From: Kiritimatiellia bacterium
GTDB lineage: Bacteria > Verrucomicrobiota > Kiritimatiellia > RFP12 > UBA3636
Assembly (NCBI GenBank): GCA_017424105.1
Contig: JAFPBK010000010.1
Location: 1-44,358, forward strand
Direction: 5' to 3'
Length of the DNA: 44,358 nucleotides
Below the pieces are notes generated by a model, which was given only the letters and a program-made list of their open reading frames with translations, did not search any database and had not been told where the DNA came from. The position numbers and the translations under genes were made by a program. How positions within the stretch are numbered: the first letter of the stretch is position 1; each line of letters opens with the position of its first letter. This document shows, in pieces, positions 15,249-41,920 of this stretch.

Positions 15249-15764
15249 GTTAAAAGAATTGCATTGTGCTGCAATGTGCACGTGGTGGCTAGCGTGCAAA
15301 GAAAGGGACGCAGAGAGCTCAAAGGACGCGTAGGTGCGAAACTAGTGAATAGATAAGGTAAAAATTATTTGAGGTGCACGCTTAACTGGGGTGCGGTACG
15401 TCCTCGTGCTGCACAAGCTACTACGTAAGCGTATTTTGGGCTCTATACTTATATTTAACTGTTGAATTAGTGCTAACTACGTCAGGTACAAGAATATAAG
15501 CAATATTTTGAAGTTTAGTTGTCGATTTTTGGGCTAAATTGGGTATTAGATTTATGCCAAAACAAGGGCAAAAACAGGTTTAATTTATTGCTATTATTGA
15601 TGTGTTTTGGTAGTATTTTCGTGCTTTTTTTAAGTGTAGTCGGTTTTATCTAATCTATACATATTTTTAGTGCAATCTTCTATACTTATTATATAAGCAC
15701 AACAAAATATATGATAAATATATTATTAACAACTAAACAAACAACAAAATATTGAGGAAAATAT

Positions 15765-21631: not shown

Positions 21632-22411
21632 ATGGATTGGAAAGGAATACCCTTTACGGAAGTATTCAAACGAGATGCACATATCCATCTTCAGGAATAC
21701 AGCCATCTGCAATTAGATTTAGCAATAAGCAGAGCAATTGCTTGCGATATTGTTCGGTTTGATTGTTGTGGTACTGAGCCTGGAGATTGGAACCGCGTTT
21801 CCAATCTTGCAAAGCAATATCCTGATAATGTATTTCCTTATTTTGGTGTCCATCCTTGGTATGCAGAAGAAAGTGCTATTGATATAGAGTCTGATTTCTC
21901 TTTCCTTCGTTCAATGCTAGAGAAAATTCCTTATGCTGGCGTTGGAGAAATTGGACTTGATGCTAAGGTAGAAAATACAGATTATCAGGGTTTTATTTTA
22001 GACCAACAGTTAGAGCTCGCAAAGGAGCTTTGCCGACCTGTTGCAATACATAGTGCGGGTTTAATAGGTGAGTTATATGAGCATTTAAAGCCATATGCAG
22101 GTTGCTTCCCAGAGCTACTGATTCATTCTCCTTCTATGTCCTATGAGATGGCAGAGAAGTTTTTGAAGCTTGGAGCAGTTTTCTCTTTTAATCTTTTTGT
22201 TTTAAATGAGGATTTTGTGCGTATGCGCGAGATTGCTGCGCGTGTGCCTCCTGAGGCAATTCGCTTTGAAACAGATTCCCCACGTCGCATCTTGTCTGGC
22301 TATGAAGTGGCAGAGTTAAATGGACTTATTGGACCTGAGTGCATACCAGAGGTTCATAAAGAGGTGCTTGCGATACGTCGCCGCTATGCCTCACGTGGAG
22401 TATTGTCCTAA
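21632..22411 (+). CDS. TatD-family metal-dependent hydrolase.
   Basis: DAHIHL (HxH) at the N-terminus, GEIGLD, and later His/Asp motifs typical of the TatD/YcfH amidohydrolase fold. Confidence 0.7.
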   Translation: MDWKGIPFTEVFKRDAHIHLQEYSHLQLDLAISRAIACDIVRFDCCGTEPGDWNRVSNLAKQYPDNVFPYFGVHPWYAEESAIDIESDFSFLRSMLEKIPYAGVGEIGLDAKVENTDYQGFILDQQLELAKELCRPVAIHSAGLIGELYEHLKPYAGCFPELLIHSPSMSYEMAEKFLKLGAVFSFNLFVLNEDFVRMREIAARVPPEAIRFETDSPRRILSGYEVAELNGLIGPECIPEVHKEVLAIRRRYASRGVLS

Positions 22412-23484
22412 TGTCTTGTGGCAGAGTCATAGTAGGTGTCAGTGGTGGCGTTGATTCTTCCGTCGCTGCATTGCTGTTGAAGGATGCGGGTTATGAGGTG
22501 ATTGGCGTGACAATGAATATACGCCAATTAGGCAAATATCGTAGTGATATCAATAATTCTTGTTTTAGCATCGGAGGAGAGGAGTGCATAGCAGCTGCTA
22601 AGCAGACTTGCGATGCTATTGGTATTGAGCACTACGCATTTGATTGTGCTGCAGAATTTGAGGAGAAGATTCTTTCTTATTTTTCAAATGAATTTCTTTC
22701 CGGACGTACACCAAATCCATGTGTCCATTGTAATCGTCATATAAAATTCGGACTTTTGCCCGAAGCAGTGAAAGCTAGTGGAATAGCTTTTGATTATTAT
22801 GCAACAGGGCATTATGCTCGCCGTAGCCCTATTGGTGCTGCTAAGGTTCAGTTGCTTAAGGGAGCTGACCCACGAAAAGATCAATCATATTTTCTTTATA
22901 ATATTACAAAAGAGCAACTCTCTCAGCACCTTTTCCCATTAGGTGATTATACAAAACCAGAGATTCGTGCTATTGCAGAAAAATATGGTTTAGTTTCCGC
23001 AAAAAAGGCGGACAGCCAAGATTTTTATCGTGGGGATCGCCGTGATTTGTTAGGAATAAAACCTAAGCGTGGTAAATTTATTCTTTCTTCTGGAAAGGTG
23101 ATAGGAGAGCATGCTGGCTATTGGAATTTTACAATTGGTCAGCGTAAGGGCTTGGAGATTGCATATTCTGAGCCACTTTATGTTCTAGAGATTCGTGCGA
23201 AAAGCAATGAGGTTGTTGTAGGCACTGGCAGTGAAGGAATACAACAAAGCTTTACAATTTCAGCATGTAATTGGTTGTCAATTGATGAGCCTAAGGTGTC
23301 AATGACTTGTGGGGTTAAGATACGCTCTGCACAGCCAATAATATCTGGTGCCGTAGTTACGCCATTGGAAGGAGGACGAGCTCAAGTGCAGCTTTCAGGA
23401 GATGGTATCCGTGGAGTTGCACCAGGCCAGGCCGCAGTTTTTTATGATGGCGATGTTCTTCTAGGTGGCGGCACAATAGATTAG
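22411..23484 (+). CDS. mnmA: tRNA 2-thiouridine(34) synthase MnmA.
   Basis: PP-loop VGVSGGVDSSVAALLL, TPNPCVHCN, DQSYFL. TAATG stop/start overlap with the upstream gene. Confidence 0.9.
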   Translation: MSCGRVIVGVSGGVDSSVAALLLKDAGYEVIGVTMNIRQLGKYRSDINNSCFSIGGEECIAAAKQTCDAIGIEHYAFDCAAEFEEKILSYFSNEFLSGRTPNPCVHCNRHIKFGLLPEAVKASGIAFDYYATGHYARRSPIGAAKVQLLKGADPRKDQSYFLYNITKEQLSQHLFPLGDYTKPEIRAIAEKYGLVSAKKADSQDFYRGDRRDLLGIKPKRGKFILSSGKVIGEHAGYWNFTIGQRKGLEIAYSEPLYVLEIRAKSNEVVVGTGSEGIQQSFTISACNWLSIDEPKVSMTCGVKIRSAQPIISGAVVTPLEGGRAQVQLSGDGIRGVAPGQAAVFYDGDVLLGGGTID

Positions 23485-23595
23485 TTGAAGCAGAGCAAAC
23501 ACTGTAGTCCTAATTTAAGCGTGCTAGCTAAAAGTGCGAAGTTTTTGACAGGATTAACAATAATTTTGTTTGGATTTGTGCGGATGTTGTGGCTT

Positions 23596-23700
23596 GTGTT
23601 GTGGCTAGGTGTTGTGTGTGCGTGGTGCATGATTCAATTATCTCGGAGCAGCCAGGCGTCGCCCTGGCTGGAGCACCAAGATGATGTCTCAGGATTAACG
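23596..23700. repeat. Intergenic repeat element, copy B.
   Basis: Collinear with 5975-6080. The hairpin 23649-23656 / 23663-23670 (CAGCCAGG..CCTGGCTG) carries compensatory changes relative to copy A. An extra CAGGATTAAC lies at 23549-23558. Confidence 0.7.
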
Positions 23701-23836
23701 TGTATTGGCTATCGCGGAATTAGTGAATTGTTATGGATATTGGTTATTGGGATTTGGGATTTAGGCTGGACTTTGGTGGAAAAGGCTGGATTAAACGCAA
23801 CTATGTGAGACTTATGTGGGATTTTTATACGAAAAG

Positions 23837-23986: not shown

Positions 23987-24607
23987 TTATTCCGCTAGAT
24001 AAATTACCTCATATTGAGGCTCTTCATCAGCTGGTTCAAAGACTGATTCGTCTGGCGTTGCACAACCTGTGCAGCCTACTAGAATAGATGCTGCAAAGGC
24101 TATGCAAATGAGCTTTCCAGAACCTAGTAATTTATTGTAGAGACCTCCCAATGCACGTACTGCATTATAATAGATTCTTGATACTAGAGAAGCACCCTTT
24201 TGCTTGAAGGAATTTGTTTGTTTTTTAGACTCCTGATAGAGCTTTAATCCGAAAACGTTATCACCTATTTTTCGGAGTTTGTCCCAGTCATAACCGAGGG
24301 CTATGAAGCTTGGGTCTGAAGCCATGTCGTTGAGGTGCTCGTACCACACATCGTGAGGAATGTAACCGCAGGCCATGTCAATAATGAATTTGTCAGGAGC
24401 TTTGGTAGCACCATCAATGCAATCTGCTTCTTTTTTGACATAGAATTGTTTGTTTTTGATATAGAAGTCATCGCAGTCAAAGTCTGGCATAGGTATTTTA
24501 AATGTACCAACAAAGTAATCAGATTTTAGGATGATTTTGTGGTCAGAATCCTCTTTTAGAGCTTTCTTTATATTATATATAATAGGTATAAGGGAATTTG
24601 TGTTCAT
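23987..24607 (-). CDS. Prophage accessory (moron) protein, DUF1353-like, with a C-terminal hydrophobic, lipobox-like segment.
   Basis: First ATG at 24607 (the track TTG is at 24628). ACGYIPHDVWYEH resembles the HD..Y motif of DUF1353. The C-terminus is LICIAFAASILVGCTGC. The gene is flanked by its own non-coding region and a terminator. Confidence 0.45.
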   Translation of the reverse strand: MNTNSLIPIIYNIKKALKEDSDHKIILKSDYFVGTFKIPMPDFDCDDFYIKNKQFYVKKEADCIDGATKAPDKFIIDMACGYIPHDVWYEHLNDMASDPSFIALGYDWDKLRKIGDNVFGLKLYQESKKQTNSFKQKGASLVSRIYYNAVRALGGLYNKLLGSGKLICIAFAASILVGCTGCATPDESVFEPADEEPQYEVIYLAE

Positions 24608-24649
24608 TTTTCGTTGACTTTCATACAAAATTTATGGTTAAATATTTGT

Positions 24650-24789
24650 GCTGGATGAGATTTGAGTAGCGTTATCGTCCATCCAGGTGGCTAGAGGCTA
24701 CACTACTAGTCGCCCCCTGCGTGTAATATGTGGGGCCCATACACTAATGTGAGATGGGGGGGGCTTCCGTCAGGAAGCCCGTTTTTTTT
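24650..24789 (+). ncRNA. Candidate prophage sRNA of about 140 nt (unknown family).
   Basis: Promoter: TTGACT (24614-19), an 18-nt spacer, then TGgTTAAAT. Several stems: 24651-57/24680-86, 24687-94/24706-13, CCCAT/ATGGG. Canonical terminator: GGGCTTCC-GTCA-GGAAGCCC plus T8 (24761-24789). No plausible ORF on either strand. Confidence 0.4.
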
Positions 24790-25486
24790 ATGTATTGATT
24801 CCGAAATGTCGTCTTACATAAGAAGCATCTGCTTTTAGGACACTATTGACTATCCCCGTTTTAGAGTCAATAATTATGTAAATACGTTTGCCATTCATGA
24901 TTTCTTGTCTTGTTTGATAAAGTATTGTCTGGTCTCTATGTGGTTGAATGTTTTTGAATGTAGGTTGCTTTATCAAAGCTAAATAAATTATGTTTTTCCT
25001 TTTCCCCTCTAATGGGTGCTTAACCTCTATTTTTGTTTTTAGAATATTGGTAAAATAACACTTGATACCACAAAAATTCTCTTCAAAGCCTTTCTCTAGA
25101 GCCTCTTCAATAGATACATTCATATCCATAATTACTCGGTCAGCAGTATAATGATCATTAGACGATTTATACTCTTCTAAAGCCCTTGCATAATGCTCTT
25201 CTTTTGAGATTCGTATCTCTTGAGAATGTTCTGGTTCTTTTTTCTCTATAGGTTTTAATCCTTCTGGAGGAGGACCACTATATCCACATTCATTACATTT
25301 TTTGCCATTGTAAAACCTTCCGCATTGACACTTGTAATAAGGGGTGTTCTTATTTGCTAATATTTGCTCGGGAACATATACACGCAGCAATAATCTTAGC
25401 ATGCGTTTCTTTTCTGCTATAGAACAGTCCTCTTTAAGTATGAGTTTTAGGTGTTTATAAGCAAAATAATGAGTTATTGCCTTCAT
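24788..25486 (-). CDS. Hypothetical zinc-ribbon protein (AT-rich accessory gene).
   Basis: The ATG at 25486 overlaps the upstream stop (TAATG). The ribbon is CQCGRFYNGKKCNECG. The C-terminal beta-rich segment is GKRIYIIIDSKTGIVNSVL. GC is visibly lower than in the neighbouring genes. Confidence 0.55.
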   Translation of the reverse strand: MKAITHYFAYKHLKLILKEDCSIAEKKRMLRLLLRVYVPEQILANKNTPYYKCQCGRFYNGKKCNECGYSGPPPEGLKPIEKKEPEHSQEIRISKEEHYARALEEYKSSNDHYTADRVIMDMNVSIEEALEKGFEENFCGIKCYFTNILKTKIEVKHPLEGKRKNIIYLALIKQPTFKNIQPHRDQTILYQTRQEIMNGKRIYIIIDSKTGIVNSVLKADASYVRRHFGINT

Positions 25487-25980
25487 TATAGAGCCTTTTC
25501 TTGGGATATTACATTTGTCCGCCATTTGCCAGACTTTGAAATTATAAGGAAGCGGAAGGCAACAGCCTTGTTTATAGCAGCGGCATCCCAGCCATGGTAA
25601 CCAGTTTCAATATTGTGGAAATCGCGTGTGGTTCTCGTTGTGCTTATCCAGTCGAATTTACCACCAAGCCAGCGGCCGTCAATCTTGCAAAACAAACATG
25701 CTATTGTTTCGCTTGCGTTATGAGCTCCATTCGCACCTAAATTTTCACATCCACCTTTAATCCACGAATAGGATAAACCATTAGATTTGACAGATAAGTC
25801 GGCTATTTCTACTTCGTTTAGATATGTTGCTCCTTCTCCATGGAACCCACCATAAACCCATTCCAACTCGTTGTATGCTTCTTCATCAGAAATTACTCGC
25901 TTATTTGAAGGAAGAGCTTCTTCTAGTTTGTCTTTGATTTTGAAGAGCGATTTTATTGCGTTAATGAGTTTCTTTAGCAT
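25486..25980 (-). CDS. Hypothetical protein (position suggests a lysis or accessory role).
   Basis: A perfect SD, AAGGAGG, lies 6 nt before the ATG at 25980 (the track start 26004 has none). No recognisable motif. Confidence 0.55.
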   Translation of the reverse strand: MLKKLINAIKSLFKIKDKLEEALPSNKRVISDEEAYNELEWVYGGFHGEGATYLNEVEIADLSVKSNGLSYSWIKGGCENLGANGAHNASETIACLFCKIDGRWLGGKFDWISTTRTTRDFHNIETGYHGWDAAAINKAVAFRFLIISKSGKWRTNVISQEKAL

Positions 25981-36489: not shown

Positions 36490-37377
36490 CTAAGCAGATG
36501 TAACTAGGCGAACGCACTTGTCAGCCTGAACAAGCTCGCAGCCCATAAGCACCTCAAGAGTAGCAAAGTTGTGGCCCTTAGCAGGTGCACCATGACGACG
36601 CATGCCTAGAACTAGACCAGAATTCTCGTCAACCATCTCGCCAATCTCTTCGTAGTTGGCCTTGCTGTTAACAGGAACTTTGCGAGAAGCAACAACGATT
36701 GCTGTCTCTGGGATTATTGCACCAATAGTGCCAGTTGGAAGCTGAGTGCCTTCCATTACAGACTTAAAGCCATACAAGCCATCAATCTTGCCATTCTTGA
36801 TTGCTTCAGCACCGCCATAGACATTAGAGTCTAGCAAAGCTAGAAGGTCTGCAAACTGGTTTGGAGCAAGCAATAGAACAGAATCAGCTGGATCAGCACC
36901 AACCTCTGCACACTTCTTACGAAGCTTTGCAATGTTTGCCTTGTTTACTGTGCCTAGAGAATATGTTGCAGAGATTGCTTCTGCTGTAATCTTCTGAGTA
37001 ACAAACTTCTCAATGCCACGAGCAAGCACCTTACCAGCAATCTTACCTGCATCTGCCCAGATGCCTGTAGTGTTGAACTTAGTAGCCTCCTCATCAGTGA
37101 AGGAGAATGTATGCTTCAAGTGTGTGTCAAACTTGATTGTTACCTGCTCCATAGTGCCATCTGTTGTCTCGTAGTCATTTGTGTCTACATTGAAAACAGA
37201 TGCTTCACCGCCCTTGAATACCTTAACGACCAATGCGTCGCCAATAGAGTTAACTGTCTCATCAGAGAAGTTGGTAGTGAATGCAGAAACACGAGCTAGA
37301 GCACGCTGTGCTCCGATGATTGCTTTACCTGCTGCATAAGAAATGCCAGGAATTTCGGCGATAGATGTGTCAGCCAT
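36490..37377 (-). CDS. Major capsid protein.
   Basis: 295-aa ORF directly after the protease/scaffold gene. The call rests on position and size. Confidence 0.6.
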   Translation of the reverse strand: MADTSIAEIPGISYAAGKAIIGAQRALARVSAFTTNFSDETVNSIGDALVVKVFKGGEASVFNVDTNDYETTDGTMEQVTIKFDTHLKHTFSFTDEEATKFNTTGIWADAGKIAGKVLARGIEKFVTQKITAEAISATYSLGTVNKANIAKLRKKCAEVGADPADSVLLLAPNQFADLLALLDSNVYGGAEAIKNGKIDGLYGFKSVMEGTQLPTGTIGAIIPETAIVVASRKVPVNSKANYEEIGEMVDENSGLVLGMRRHGAPAKGHNFATLEVLMGCELVQADKCVRLVTSA

Positions 37378-37403: not shown

Positions 37404-38315
37404 TTAGTGATTGAATGCTGCAGGGTTCTTTTCCATCTCAGCAACAATTGCATGAGCACCCTTGCCAGCGAGTGAATTTTTAATAGACATTACAGGCTTC
37501 TTAGCTGCAGCTGCATTGCATACTGGCTTAGCAGGCTCTGTAATTACTGGCTTAGCAGGAGCGGCGTTAACAACCGCTTTCTTGCAGTTAGCCAAAATAG
37601 CACGAGCAAGTGTTGGGTTAGCACGAAAAGCGTTCTTTAGCTCTTCACGATCCTCGACCATGTCCTCGTTCTCTGCAGCGAATGCTTCTGCTTCAGCCTC
37701 TGCCTCTTTTGCTTCAAAATCGGCAATGCGAGTCTGTAGCTCAGTCACTCCTGCAATAACATCCTCCTCAGTTGCCTCTGGAGCAAGACCGAGAAGTTCA
37801 ATTAGCTTAGTTAGCATAATTTTATTTTCCTCTTTGGCATTGTTGTTGTTAACTACCGTTTTCTGCGAGTTGCCAATCGCTCGCACTGGTAGGTTCGGAC
37901 GGTTTGTTAGTGCAACGGAGACGAGCCTTGTAGGACATCCATCGTTGTCAATAATCCAAACTGGTGAAACGTAGCGATATTCGCCATTGCTGACAAGCTT
38001 CGCTCCGTCCTCTGTAAATTCCATCTTGCCTCTGAGACCGACGCCTTCTTCATGAGCAAGCTGAGTAATCCAAGCCATAGCCTTAGTGCTGCCACCTTCC
38101 TCAGAGGTGTGGTCGCAATCAACAAGTACAGGATTGTCAAAGGCTGCCATCATATTCTCAATGGTTTTGACTGATACATCCTGGATAACTTTATTGCCTT
38201 CATCATCCCATTGAGGCCATTTCCCAATCGGAGCAAGGTGAATCCATAGTTCACTGCCTGCCTCCACGTTTTTGGGAAGGTTTAACTCAATATTTTTTGT
38301 TTTTCGTAAATTCAT
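37404..38315 (-). CDS. Mu gpI-type head maturation protease with a C-terminal scaffold region.
   Basis: The N-terminal half (WIHLAPIGKW...VDCDHTSEEGG...YRYVSPVW) resembles the Mu-like prophage I protein. The C-terminal half is Ala/Glu-rich coiled coil (EAKEAEAEAEAF). Confidence 0.65.
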   Translation of the reverse strand: MNLRKTKNIELNLPKNVEAGSELWIHLAPIGKWPQWDDEGNKVIQDVSVKTIENMMAAFDNPVLVDCDHTSEEGGSTKAMAWITQLAHEEGVGLRGKMEFTEDGAKLVSNGEYRYVSPVWIIDNDGCPTRLVSVALTNRPNLPVRAIGNSQKTVVNNNNAKEENKIMLTKLIELLGLAPEATEEDVIAGVTELQTRIADFEAKEAEAEAEAFAAENEDMVEDREELKNAFRANPTLARAILANCKKAVVNAAPAKPVITEPAKPVCNAAAAKKPVMSIKNSLAGKGAHAIVAEMEKNPAAFNH

Positions 38316-38535: not shown

Positions 38536-40611
38536 TCACCTCTCTGAATTATACAAGGCGGTCTTCTTTCTGTAGAAGGCTGCCTGTTTTTCTTCCATCA
38601 AATAAGCAGAAATCACAGTAAGGTATTTGTCTTTACGTCCTAAAATTACAGCCTTATTGGAGTTTTTATCTAAAACAACTATGTTGCTATTCGTTGTGTC
38701 ATAATATTTTCCGTAAGCAAGAACCTTTGCTATGTTGTTATCTTGTAACATAATCTCGTGGTCAGTTCCTTGGTCCGTAATGTCTTGGCTTGAGTGTTTA
38801 ATTTTGTTTTTTTCATCCTCAATACGTTTTAATATGTGCTTATAGCCATAATTTTCATTGCCTTGGTCAAATTCGATATGTCCAAAAATCCAATTATCCA
38901 TAAAGTTTTTAGAATCTTTGCCTGCAAAGACATTTTCTAGTTCTGCTATTGCGTGGACTTCCTGTTTTTTGCGATATTCTATCTTTTCTTGTTTTGTTGT
39001 TGGTTTGCATCTGCAAGTCTCGGCAGACTTGGCTTTGCAATCGTTGTCGCCAAAGCTATTCTTCACACTCTTTTCGCCAAGAGTGTCAGCGACCTCATGT
39101 GCGATGTCTGCTTCAATCTCTGCAGCAAGACCATCTGCTTTAAAGCCTAATTCCTCTGGAGAAGCTTCAGCCATTGCCTTAGCTTTAGCTAAAAACTCCT
39201 CATCATCTGCTGCCAATAAGTCTTGAAGTGACTTGGCTGTTCCCTGCATATCTCGAGAGAAGCCCAAAATCGCGCTCTGGAGCGTTTTTTCACTATTGGC
39301 GAGTATTTTATCGTCTTGTTTCGGAAAATCGTTTTGCAACGGGTTCGCAACGGCTTCTCGCGTGTCTTCTTGAGAGTTCATCATCCCAAAACCACCCATT
39401 GCGGCATCTTTCTCCAGAATAAAGCCAGTTCTCTCCTCAAGTTGTCCCTTTTCGACTACGTATCCAGCAGTCTTTGCTTTAGCTGCTAAGTCAAAGACAT
39501 CTCCAGCAGATTGTTCCTCTTCATGTCCAAGCTCAAACTTAACTGCTACAGGCTTGCCAGGAAAGTGTAATCTCAAGAATGGAACAACAAGTGCTCTGTG
39601 GATAGCATCGCCAATAATCTCTGCATCACGTGCAACAATCTGCTGCCAAACATCCATCTGAGCGTTTCCTGCCAATGTACCAGCACCGCTTTCTGCCAAG
39701 CTAGTTAATGTGCCACCAGTTGCTAGAAGTACAATAAGCTTCTCTTGATGTTCAATAAATGCTGAAAATGGATCCGTTCCTCGTGCCTCAGTGCCATAGC
39801 TAACTTGCGAGCCTGCTGGCAAAGCACCTGAACGAGCTTCAGCAATAGCCACCGCTGCCTCCTGAAAAGCCTGGACCTCAGCAGGTGAAATGTTGTCTGG
39901 CATAGTGATAGTACAAGGAGGAATGCCATATCGCTCCAAGAATCGTCCCCAATCGCTCTCAGCTAGGTTGTGCCTTAGGAATATTGATAGTGCAGGATAG
40001 TCAATCGCTCTAGGACGCTCAACAGTTATAAGCTCGCATTTAGGTATTGCTGGCAAATCCCATGGCTCAAGAACTGAATCTGCTCCCTCATTCCAATGCC
40101 ATGTGCCTGTTTCGACATTGCGACAAAAATTCCAGCTATTTAGCTTGTCAATGTGGGCGACATAACCCTCCGCAGTCCATACAGGCAAACAATGGCTAAA
40201 GCCTCGGAAGAAAGCAAGCGATAAGTGCTCAATGGCTTCTGATAGGTTGTCAATCCCATCAATGAATCTCTCTACTGCGTTAATCTGTGCTTCTGCTGCT
40301 GCATCATTATGTCCGCGGCCCTTAACAATCTGCCAACCTAGAGAAGCTAGAGCAGATGCTCTACGCTCTACGCACGTAAGCAGCACAGGGTCAGCTCTCT
40401 CCACTTGGTCGTATAGATACTGCAAGCGTGCATAGTTACCTCTGCGTGCTGCATCATAGATGTTGCGTGCCTCAGTGATTGTGAGGCTTCGTAATGGGTT
40501 GGTATTCTCAAGCCAGGAATGCGAGCTAGTCTTTTTAGGTTGATTAACTCGTATAGTAGCAATCTGCTTATTTTGTACTTTGACAGTTCCTTTAGTAGTC
40601 TTAGTTGCCAT
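38536..40611 (-). CDS. Portal protein (DUF935 / Mu gp29-like) with an extra C-terminal domain of about 170 aa.
   Basis: Directly downstream of the large terminase. YDQVERADPVLLTCVERRASALASLGWQIV is a DUF935-style segment. 691 aa versus about 510 aa typical. The last 500 nt or so are AT-rich. Confidence 0.75.
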   Translation of the reverse strand: MATKTTKGTVKVQNKQIATIRVNQPKKTSSHSWLENTNPLRSLTITEARNIYDAARRGNYARLQYLYDQVERADPVLLTCVERRASALASLGWQIVKGRGHNDAAAEAQINAVERFIDGIDNLSEAIEHLSLAFFRGFSHCLPVWTAEGYVAHIDKLNSWNFCRNVETGTWHWNEGADSVLEPWDLPAIPKCELITVERPRAIDYPALSIFLRHNLAESDWGRFLERYGIPPCTITMPDNISPAEVQAFQEAAVAIAEARSGALPAGSQVSYGTEARGTDPFSAFIEHQEKLIVLLATGGTLTSLAESGAGTLAGNAQMDVWQQIVARDAEIIGDAIHRALVVPFLRLHFPGKPVAVKFELGHEEEQSAGDVFDLAAKAKTAGYVVEKGQLEERTGFILEKDAAMGGFGMMNSQEDTREAVANPLQNDFPKQDDKILANSEKTLQSAILGFSRDMQGTAKSLQDLLAADDEEFLAKAKAMAEASPEELGFKADGLAAEIEADIAHEVADTLGEKSVKNSFGDNDCKAKSAETCRCKPTTKQEKIEYRKKQEVHAIAELENVFAGKDSKNFMDNWIFGHIEFDQGNENYGYKHILKRIEDEKNKIKHSSQDITDQGTDHEIMLQDNNIAKVLAYGKYYDTTNSNIVVLDKNSNKAVILGRKDKYLTVISAYLMEEKQAAFYRKKTALYNSER

Positions 40612-40615
40612 TGTT

Positions 40616-41920
40616 TTACCTGCTTCTTCTAAAATAGTTCGTGTTCCGTTTTAACACAAACGGAGTGAAATAGTATCCTTTAGTCTCTGCTGCCTTGATG
40701 GCTAGAGCTAATGATGCACCTCGGTCGCTATGTCCATCTGCTGAACGTGGTGCAGAATAGCTTATGTTGCCACCTACACTTACAAGCTTCTGAATTGCGT
40801 GTAAGTCTTCCCTTAGATTGCGATCATTATTGGGTATCTGAATAGTACGCTCCTCGAACCTCTTACGCATTGCAGAATACATCTCGCCTTTTGCCTTATG
40901 CGAGAAATTGACCGCTTCAATTCTGCCACCATGACGCCTTTTTGCCTCTTCAGCAAACATCATGCCTAAGCCTGTGGCATCAATGCAGCACTTCTGCACG
41001 CCCTTTGCAGAGAGAATTCCAGACAAGACTTCCAGCTGTTCGTTGAATGGCATCTTGTGTAGCTCCTCCTTCTGAACTAGCACAAGCTTGTCTCCATGCT
41101 TTGCCAATACGGAGATTACCGACAAGTCATGGCTGCGACCAATATCCATTCCTACAAATTTAGGTGCATCTGTCTCTGCTACGCATATAGCAGACTCACA
41201 AGCTGCAATCATATCATAAGGAAGCAATACTCCAGATGAATCGATAAATTCACACATGTATTCCTGGAGCCAGATGTCAGAATCATCCACGCCAGCTCGT
41301 AGCTCTTCAACATTGACCTTTAAGCCTTGCTCAACCGCATCAAGAATCGTAAGCTTGTGCTTACTGTAGTTCTCATTCTTGCCCCAGAGGTCTGCGAACT
41401 TATTACCAAGTCCCTTTGGAGTGGACACAATGCGAAGCTTTTTTTCGCCGTTGATAGGATTGGTAATAGATGGGTAGATCGCCGCCCAAATGTCCCAAGG
41501 ACGTTCGTGGATTGCAAACTCGTCAAGGATAAGATTAGCAGAATAACCACGTGCTGTGTCTGGGTTCGCAGGGATTGCCACTATGCGGCTGCCATTATTG
41601 AATCTAATTTCTGCCTTGCTTTTCATAGCGTCAGAACTATGCAGTGTTTCCTCGTAGGCGTCTACCACAAGCTGGAATGCCTCGCTCCACATCTTAGCTT
41701 TCTGCATCCACTCCAACGCCTGGCGTTCACCAGCAGACAATACCACCCAAAGCTGCCCTGGCCTCAATAGACAGTCACGGACAGCCTCGCAAGCAGTGCT
41801 GAAGCTCTTACCAGTCTGGCGAGACCACATGCCAATCTTGAATCTGGCATCGTCTGCGACCCACTTCCTCTGGTAAGGTAGTAGCACTTTATTAAGTATT
41901 GGTTCGTTGGATTTAAACAT
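40616..41920 (-). CDS. Terminase large subunit.
   Basis: Walker A-like MWSRQTGKSFS, Walker B LILDEF, and a C-terminal RNase H-like nuclease region with Asp residues (VGMDIG, CIDATG). Confidence 0.8.
   Translation of the reverse strand: MFKSNEPILNKVLLPYQRKWVADDARFKIGMWSRQTGKSFSTACEAVRDCLLRPGQLWVVLSAGERQALEWMQKAKMWSEAFQLVVDAYEETLHSSDAMKSKAEIRFNNGSRIVAIPANPDTARGYSANLILDEFAIHERPWDIWAAIYPSITNPINGEKKLRIVSTPKGLGNKFADLWGKNENYSKHKLTILDAVEQGLKVNVEELRAGVDDSDIWLQEYMCEFIDSSGVLLPYDMIAACESAICVAETDAPKFVGMDIGRSHDLSVISVLAKHGDKLVLVQKEELHKMPFNEQLEVLSGILSAKGVQKCCIDATGLGMMFAEEAKRRHGGRIEAVNFSHKAKGEMYSAMRKRFEERTIQIPNNDRNLREDLHAIQKLVSVGGNISYSAPRSADGHSDRGASLALAIKAAETKGYYFTPFVLKRNTNYFRRSR

Follow-up and report, generated by a model that had tools for sequence, protein, structure and literature searches.

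We analysed a stretch of 44,358 nucleotides (nt) from a Kiritimatiellia bacterium (assembly GCA_017424105.1, contig JAFPBK010000010.1, positions 1–44,358 of the forward strand), referred to here as the window, and within it a candidate gene for a structured small RNA (sRNA) in a prophage. Host genes fill positions 1–23484 on the + strand, with mnmA as the last of them, and tailed-phage genes run from 23987 onward, all on the – strand. The prophage seems to end at about 23747, where related phage contigs lose homology. Two phage genes enclose the island of interest: a gene for a 206-amino-acid (aa) protein (23987–24607, –), the last phage gene before the prophage end, and a gene whose 232-aa product contains a Zn ribbon (24788–25486, –). 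On the + strand between them, divergent from the 206-aa gene and convergent with the Zn-ribbon gene, lies a predicted sRNA of about 140 nt (24650–24789, from the predicted transcription start to the end of the T-tract), which we call type A. It is about 0.9 kb from the prophage end, which is the classical position of a moron. A preliminary description of this DNA had proposed a structured + strand sRNA here; a conserved promoter, terminators belonging to the RNAs themselves and compensatory substitutions in homologues bear this out at the level of sequence, and we consider it very probable that 24650–24789 is a real RNA gene. The same description placed the Zn-ribbon gene at 24788–25980, a span that we shorten because its start is better placed at 25486 (232 aa); the start of the other flanking gene is at 24607 (206 aa).

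The predicted promoter (24614–24643, +) consists of a –35 element TTGACT (24614–24619), an 18-nt spacer and an extended –10 element TGg-TTAAAT (24635–24643), and the predicted transcription start is at about 24650. The exact pattern occurs once in the 44-kb window; when three mismatches are allowed there are three matches compared with 2.5 expected. The divergent 206-aa gene has its ATG (24607) at a distance of 7 nt from the –35 element. At the other end is an intrinsic terminator (24761–24789, +) in which GGGCUUCC and GGAAGCCC enclose a GUCA loop (24761–24780), followed by G and T8 (24782–24789). Its 8-bp stem has six GC pairs, and it was the sole strong + strand candidate reported there by a consensus scan. 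The T8 overlaps the TAA stop codon (24788–24790, –) of the convergent gene. Because a C-rich sequence follows the hairpin on the – strand, this terminator is predicted to work on the + strand only, and no – strand terminator was found between the two – strand genes (24788–25486 and 23987–24607). Both transcription signals, including the single orientation of the terminator and its overlap with the convergent stop, had been read in the same way in the preliminary description.

Folding of the + strand RNA from 24650 to 24780 gave a minimum free energy of –60.3 kcal/mol (z –4.6), and none of 200 dinucleotide shuffles folded as well. The opposite strand of the same segment had a z of –2.3, and the RNA strand of type-A sequences had values between –4.6 and –5.0. 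The predicted fold is a row of four consecutive hairpins plus the terminator, in place of the mutually exclusive stems suggested earlier. Hairpin 1 (24651–24686, +) has an outer stem CUGGAUG/CAUCCAG and a large loop containing the conserved UUGAGUAGC and GUAGC (24666–24670). Hairpin 2 (24687–24713, +) has a 10-bp stem and a 6-nt loop, GCUACA (24697–24702). Hairpin 3 (24715–24735, +) pairs CCCUGCGUG with UAUGUGGGG and contains many G-U pairs, which become A-C mismatches on the opposite strand, and hairpin 4 (24736–24759, +) is formed by CCCAU.CAC and GUG..AUGGG. The GUAGC of the hairpin-1 loop is complementary to GCUAC (24697–24701) of the hairpin-2 loop. The duplex between the two loops is predicted at –8.3 kcal/mol, a value matched by no more than 0.7% of dinucleotide shuffles treated alike. 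These data support the idea that the loops of hairpins 1 and 2 form a kissing loop or pseudoknot.

As relatives of the locus we took metagenomic contigs with the same gene order, which were reached via homologues of the two flanking proteins. Four of these (L001–L004) have a type-A RNA with one to three single-nucleotide differences. In L005 the type-A RNA has diverged with every helix kept, and its flanking protein has 54% identity. In 50-nt bins, the RNAs of the window and L005 are 80–86% identical, as compared with 50–78% in the coding flanks. Three pairs of hairpin 1 are changed on both sides (GC>AU, AU>GC, and GC>AU) and one is GC>GU. Hairpin 2 belongs to a 38-nt core, AGGUGGCUAGAGGCUACACUACUAGUCGCCCCCUGCGUG, that is 100% identical in L005. 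Two one-sided changes in hairpin 3 keep the pairing (GU>GC and UA>UG), the stem of hairpin 4 is invariant with only its loop differing (UAAU to UGGU in L005), and the terminator stem has a compensatory change from C-G to U-A. This amounts to four double-compensatory pairs (three in hairpin 1 and one in the terminator) and three further one-sided changes with pairing kept; just two pairs, both in the inner section of hairpin 1, are broken. Structure-preserving substitutions, the absence of which had been put forward as grounds for doubting the sRNA, are thus present in homologues. A pseudoknot between the C5 and G7 runs, also suggested earlier, did not hold up. Hairpin 4 and the terminator already occupy the G-run, and CTCCC in L001 and GGGAGGG in L005 are uncompensated.

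Other relatives have different RNAs at the same position. In L006, L013, and L016 the same promoter is followed by a wholly different RNA, type B, which brings a terminator of its own (GACCAACAG...CUGUUGGUC and a T-run). L009 has a third RNA, type C, and here the terminator falls within the 3'-terminal part of the convergent open reading frame (ORF). L014 and L015 are without the RNA and without the Zn-ribbon gene, and in them a gene of the family of the 164-aa protein encoded upstream of the module in the window abuts the 206-aa gene. All RNA-bearing relatives that were read have the promoter–RNA–terminator layout on the same strand, and each RNA variant brings its own + strand terminator. 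The promoter is conserved as TTGACTTT-N14-TATGGTTAAATA in L001–L006, L009, and L013, has a variant form in L016, and is kept in five sequence-distinct relatives irrespective of the RNA downstream. The –35 element and spacer are still present in the RNA-less L015. The –10 element goes with the RNA side of the junction, being found in all RNA-bearing variants and gone in L015. As in a moron, a unit with its own promoter and terminator is inserted between genes that are adjacent in L014 and L015.

Covariation in type B was assessed in a three-sequence alignment with the structure specified by hand. Seven pairs had changed on both sides compared with 2.6 in column shuffles, and none of 500 shuffles reached seven. 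Controls in which the structure was slid along the alignment gave zero such pairs in five of six cases and one in the sixth. Four of the covarying pairs are in hairpin 1, two are in hairpin 2, and one (U-A to C-G) belongs to a pseudoknot in which the loop of hairpin 1, GGUAGG (GGCAGGAA in L016), pairs with that of hairpin 2, CCUAC (UUCCUGU in L016). Types A and B appear to have a common architecture of two 5' hairpins with complementary loops, and both contain GUGGCUAG and a GUAG/CUAC loop pairing. The type-C RNA has a 7-bp complementarity, CAUAGAA/UUCUAUG, between two hairpin regions; this is a single sequence and the match is not significant alone.

We compared pairwise identity in 50-nt bins across the 206-aa gene, the RNA, and the Zn-ribbon gene. 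The window is 96–100% identical to both L006 and L009 through the 206-aa gene and the promoter. At the –10 element or start of the RNA (about 24640) identity falls to random, and it stays at that level across the RNA and the three quarters of the Zn-ribbon gene on its C-terminal side. From about 25350–25360, at approximately codon 45–60 of this gene, it is again 98–100%. Comparison of L005 with L013 gave a matching mosaic pattern. Because identity breaks at the RNA start and returns inside the gene, the RNA and the C-terminal ~170 residues of the protein are swapped as one cassette that spans roughly 24640–25350. Gain or loss also affects the RNA and the Zn-ribbon gene jointly, since L014 and L015 have neither. 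Type-A RNA goes together with the proteins P0001 and P0002, type B with those of L013 and L016 and with P0003, and type C with P0004, whose C-terminal domain (CTD) belongs to the B family. The 206-aa gene is outside the swapped cassette, and its protein is 84–100% conserved across phages in which the neighbouring cassette differs. The earlier suggestion that the RNA is a regulator of, or antitoxin for, the flanking genes therefore gains support for 24788–25486, which is swapped, gained, and lost with it through the CTD, and is unsupported for 23987–24607, which stays constant while the RNA changes.

The island shows no coding potential. There is no – strand ORF of at least 30 aa in it and the short ORFs present are not conserved, much in line with the first reading of the island as ORF-free; the co-swapped segment likewise has no conserved ORF. 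We considered and rejected two candidates for a small protein. A 36-aa ORF on the + strand is out of frame and has an early stop in L005. On the – strand, an ORF beginning MGPTYYTQGATSSVASSHL... measures 22 aa in the window but 48 aa in L005, the tails of the two differ, and its core is without synonymous changes.

As had been supposed, the RNA does not match a known family. Rfam searched over the whole window at gathering thresholds gave no match. With permissive settings, the best Rfam 15 match within the RNA had 16.7 bits compared with a threshold of 32 bits (SBWMV1_UPD-PKh, E 1.7), and all permissive matches inside the RNA had E values of at least 0.8. Rfam 15 families that did not match include the C4/CI immunity RNAs, the abiF motif, 6S, ribozymes, riboswitches, and pRNA. 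Types B, C, and D (the last is described below) also had no Rfam match. ARAGORN detected no transfer RNA (tRNA) or transfer-messenger RNA gene in the window, and the sRNA contains no tandem repeats. Nothing useful came from BLASTN of the island or tblastn of the CTD against GenBank phages, from protein-guided locus searches in IMG/VR, or from such searches in GTDB with the whole Zn-ribbon protein. Exact-pattern scans of IMG/VR, GTDB genomes, and JGI metagenomes with the type-A core, the promoter, the type-B motifs, and the type-D promoter returned either no matches or chance and coding matches. As for possible targets, complementarity between the sRNA and the 44-kb window was limited to 9–11 nt (E >1), and that with messenger RNAs (mRNAs) of its own cassette was not beyond chance (z –1.4 to +2.1).

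The product of the convergent gene begins with a helical segment, continues with a CxxC...CxxC Zn ribbon and a linker of low complexity, and ends in the CTD. Protein alignment showed that the N-terminal helical segment is constant and the CTD variable. The CTD has about 140 aa (roughly 24788–25207), with conserved motifs DHPS..D, KGFE, VFFT, and D..TG. When a profile of the type-A protein was searched against 1.8 billion representative proteins, the CTD was found at the C-terminus of Mu-like portals of 647–817 aa and also in proteins of 169–423 aa; homologues include P0057, P0058, P0060, P0061, and L114 32–1681. The portal of the window itself (38536–40611) is without this domain. Comparison of the A and B families of CTDs with hhalign gave an E value of 7.7e-4 and a probability of 25% over 90 co-linear columns, which suggests that the two families are at best distantly related. 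The Zn-ribbon protein has the build of a polymorphic effector in that the N-terminus is conserved, the CTD is exchanged among close relatives, and this domain is common to other carriers. No cognate immunity ORF lies directly downstream, as it would in a polymorphic system; the RNA gene sits there. In L006 (1937–2590) the gene for P0003 (193 aa) appears frameshifted, and what is left of its C-terminal coding sequence (...IYVYAYHDTGVVTGWYIP*) runs on in a different frame as far as the RNA terminator.

A genome scan detected distant CTD homologues in metagenome-assembled genomes (MAGs) of Kiritimatiellae, one in a fusion to a portal (L114) and one in a protein of 169 aa (L115). These are the only two distant CTD loci that were read, and both have the layout described above: a convergent promoter-like element TTGCRT-N17-TGnTACACT, an RNA of about 90–110 nt, and a terminator on the stop codon of the CTD, with the T-run of the terminal hairpin overlapping this codon. 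The RNA of these loci (type D) is partly conserved between them (UGCGGCG... and GCUGAAAWAAUGCC-N-UCGCC). The surroundings of the two units are otherwise different. In L114 the unit has the portal-CTD gene on one side and, downstream, + strand ORFs of unknown function on the other. On the – strand of L115, 966–2030 contains five tRNA genes (Asn, three Leu, and one found by Rfam only), which adjoin the CTD gene and its convergent RNA and are on the same strand as the RNA.

The rest of the prophage in the window has a large terminase (40616–41920), the Mu-like portal mentioned above, a protease (37404–38315), and a major head protein (36490–37377), all on the – strand. This phage was not found among GenBank phages or in IMG/VR, and two of its proteins have homologues in Kiritimatiellae MAGs from ruminant guts. 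Host MnmA (22411–23484) is at most about 47% identical to that of any GTDB species representative, and the host genome therefore seems to belong to a deep, poorly sampled lineage. Other matches place this uncultivated gut bacterium in the PVC group, probably among Kiritimatiellae. Between the mnmA stop and the prophage boundary (23485–23746) are about 260 nt of G/T-rich, non-coding sequence with strong GC skew, in which there is neither a tRNA nor an Rfam match; a 107-aa ORF at 23485–23808 seems spurious. A host intergenic segment (15282–15414) is 78–87% identical to sequence just beyond the prophage end in L001, L006, and L013. This segment could be one copy of a dispersed host repeat or an element akin to an attachment site, and these three contigs may represent other integration sites or joined phage ends.

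Among the neighbouring genes, the product of the 206-aa gene has a C-terminal hydrophobic segment with LVGC followed by an acidic tail, which resembles a C-terminal anchor or lipobox. Searches of this protein against Pfam, PHROGs, NCBIfam, PADLOC, and PDB sequences gave no function. Upstream of the module, a gene for a 164-aa protein (25486–25980, –) comes after two small membrane-protein genes, and its product may be part of a lysis cassette. It belongs to a fairly wide unannotated family of 43 clusters (P0012–P0054) that is also found in a non-phage setting beside nrdD (L104). Relatives reached via this protein (L097–L105) have other downstream genes or a host setting and added no further RNA loci.

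From the arrangement of the locus, we propose that 24650–24789 specifies a moron-type phage sRNA that would be transcribed independently from its own sigma-70-like promoter to its own terminator. This RNA and the CTD of the Zn-ribbon protein would be the two parts of an accessory module, and that protein seems to be built as a polymorphic effector with a constant N-terminal carrier and an exchangeable CTD that is fused to the portal elsewhere. The sRNA would be made constitutively from the prophage and would keep the CTD harmless or silent in the lysogen, filling the role that an immunity protein has in polymorphic-toxin loci. The folded RNA would be directly recognised by the protein, as in type III toxin–antitoxin systems. 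We lean slightly toward such direct recognition because conservation of the type-A RNA exceeds that of the coding sequence on either side and types A and B each keep an internal tertiary pairing. Transcription from the prophage, a toxic or other activity of the CTD, and an RNA that serves and neutralises this domain are all inferred here. The odds are a little better than even that the RNA is functionally tied to the CTD. For the fuller proposal, that it is the cognate partner keeping an effector-like CTD harmless or silent, we estimate a probability of roughly 0.4. We regard as distinctly doubtful the generalisation that each CTD travels with its own convergent sRNA that neutralises it, which would define a class of effector modules with a structured RNA as the immunity factor. 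In a still bolder version, the portal-linked domain would bind the RNA, which would be delivered along with the virion.

To our knowledge there is no case where the co-swapped partner of a variable domain is a folded RNA. A close parallel in evolution is offered by the MuF polymorphic toxins of temperate phages, where a small immunity ORF is co-swapped downstream (Jamet et al., 2017; PMC5576092). Both kinds of cassette occur in temperate phages and have a constant N-terminal carrier, an exchangeable CTD of a kind also found on head- or portal-associated proteins, and an element immediately downstream that is swapped along with the domain. In the locus studied here, by contrast, this element is a convergent structured RNA, a Zn-ribbon protein or Mu-like portal serves as the carrier, and the effector role of the domain is putative. 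With type III and AbiF systems the locus has in common a folded or pseudoknotted RNA with its own terminator beside a phage-borne protein that it is proposed to neutralise by binding. In those systems the antitoxin RNA is encoded ahead of the toxin gene and in the same direction; ToxI and CptI consist of tandem repeats that the toxin processes, and two abiF motifs are present in RCd22 (PMC12373285). By contrast, the RNA of this locus is convergent, downstream, single-copy, and without repeats, with no match to abiF or any other Rfam family, and the protein had no PADLOC, Pfam, or NCBIfam match to the type III toxin families (ToxN, AbiEii, Abi_2). A structural analogy can also be drawn with phi29 pRNA, a phage RNA of similar size with two complementary, covarying hairpin loops, and the CTD partner can be portal-fused. 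The analogy goes no further than structure, since there is no Rfam match, the terminase is a classical large terminase, the phage is not phi29-like, and the RNA gene is in an accessory region.

Several observations weigh against an RNA partner of the CTD. The difference just noted is one, because known protein-binding RNA antitoxins are upstream tandem repeats on the same strand. The sample is small: types A and B together comprise six distinct sequences, type C has one, and type D has two. When the type-B 5' domain was made into a covariance model, it missed types A, C, and D (the best window matches had E values of at least 0.7 and were all elsewhere); for this reason homology of types A and B was not upheld and the four types are not demonstrably homologous. 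For types B, C, and D the RNA strand has no folding advantage over its complement, so that for these we rejected folding energy as a means of telling the strands apart. B-family CTDs carry two different RNAs, B and C. The Zn-ribbon protein and its CTD had no match in Pfam, NCBIfam, PADLOC, or PDB sequences, PHROGs gave no function, and the AlphaFold models of the flanking proteins are unusable, with mean confidence (pLDDT) of 51 for the 232-aa protein and 43 for the 206-aa protein. The terminator of L115 could belong to the upstream tRNA operon. Finally, co-inheritance could reflect mere physical linkage, with the RNA filling space beside a variable domain.

The main rival to an RNA that acts on the protein is a cis-antisense safeguard. 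Convergent type I pairs of prophages, such as txpA/RatA and bsrG/SR4, and the phage antisense RNAs lambda OOP and P22 sar are of this kind. Here the late-operon mRNA would read through to the next gene and so carry the sRNA's exact complement. Abundant in the lysogen, the sRNA would base-pair with any leaky read-through transcript just past the CTD ORF and lead to RNase III cleavage and decay, and convergent transcription would interfere as well. During lytic growth the late promoter would overwhelm the sRNA, and no protein recognition would be needed. The geometry suits this explanation. The units are convergent and the terminator overlaps the stop region by 3 nt in type A, about 20 nt in type B, and about 45 nt in type C; full overlap would require mRNA read-through, which is plausible given that no terminator on the – strand separates the two genes on that strand. 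The flanking genes are adjacent in one operon in relatives without the module, and the L114 unit also has ORFs downstream of the portal-CTD gene. An antisense role would explain without added assumptions why unrelated RNAs (A, B, C, and D) occur in one architecture, and structured hairpin loops are typical of antisense RNAs (CopA, Sok, RatA, and SR4). However, the type-A RNA barely overlaps the coding region, and the RNA never covers the ribosome-binding site. The 38-nt invariant core and conservation above that of the flanks are not needed for a purely antisense role and therefore suggest recognition of sequence or shape rather than antisense pairing alone, and complementary loops within one RNA, with covariation, suggest a defined three-dimensional fold. 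The resemblance to convergent type I pairs is that an sRNA with its own promoter and terminator lies at the 3' end of a prophage gene and would be expressed in the lysogen. But known toxins of such pairs are small hydrophobic membrane peptides of less than 60 aa, whereas the partner here is a 232-aa Zn-ribbon protein or a portal fusion, and no conserved small ORF that could encode such a peptide was found. We consider the antisense explanation somewhat unlikely.

Two further explanations would make the link with the CTD incidental or dispense with the RNA. Pas, AgvB, AsxR, and DicF are sRNAs of Escherichia coli prophages, and by analogy the RNA could be a trans-acting sRNA of lysogenic conversion that pairs with host or phage mRNAs or acts as a sponge for a host sRNA. 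Its strong promoter and terminator and its position near the prophage end fit this, as with Pas, AgvB/AsxR, DicF, and IpeX, which are also promoter–RNA–terminator units in a late or accessory region near the prophage end. The locus RNA has no sequence or Rfam relation to these, is far more structured, and is tied to a domain cassette. Base-pairing sRNAs of prophages are well documented (bioRxiv 10.64898/2026.05.13.724894), and the conserved loops UUGAGUAGC and GCUACA could serve as seeds. Because these loops are complementary to each other they are probably occupied, and the best complementarity in the window (11 nt, E >1) and that with the cassette mRNAs are no better than chance. A trans-acting role would also leave unexplained the joint swapping, gain, and loss with the CTD and the recurrence beside distant CTDs, and it seems quite improbable. 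In the remaining explanation there is no RNA gene at all: the terminator would insulate the late operon, the rest would be a 5' regulatory region of the 206-aa gene, and the apparent + strand promoter would be conserved through overlap with the translation start region of that gene. The short distance from the –35 element to the ATG, retention of the –35 element and spacer in L015, and the chance frequency of promoter-like matches overall agree with this. It does not account for the loss of the –10 element from L015 and its presence in every RNA-bearing variant, for three or four unrelated inserts that each bring a correctly oriented terminator, for about 110 nt of compensated helices between promoter and terminator, or for the strong strand asymmetry of type-A folding. 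We view this explanation as very unlikely.

Phage-encoded sRNAs and polymorphic effector cassettes are each already known. If the RNA is an antidote or regulator of the CTD, an RNA-based logic of immunity would be added to polymorphic toxin and effector systems, and this would give a first handle on an uncharacterised domain that Kiritimatiellae-like phages of the rumen and gut attach to their portals. The predicted transcription signals are well defined, which makes the proposal directly testable. On a conservative reading, the locus would provide a new structured RNA family from a barely explored group of phages and hosts.

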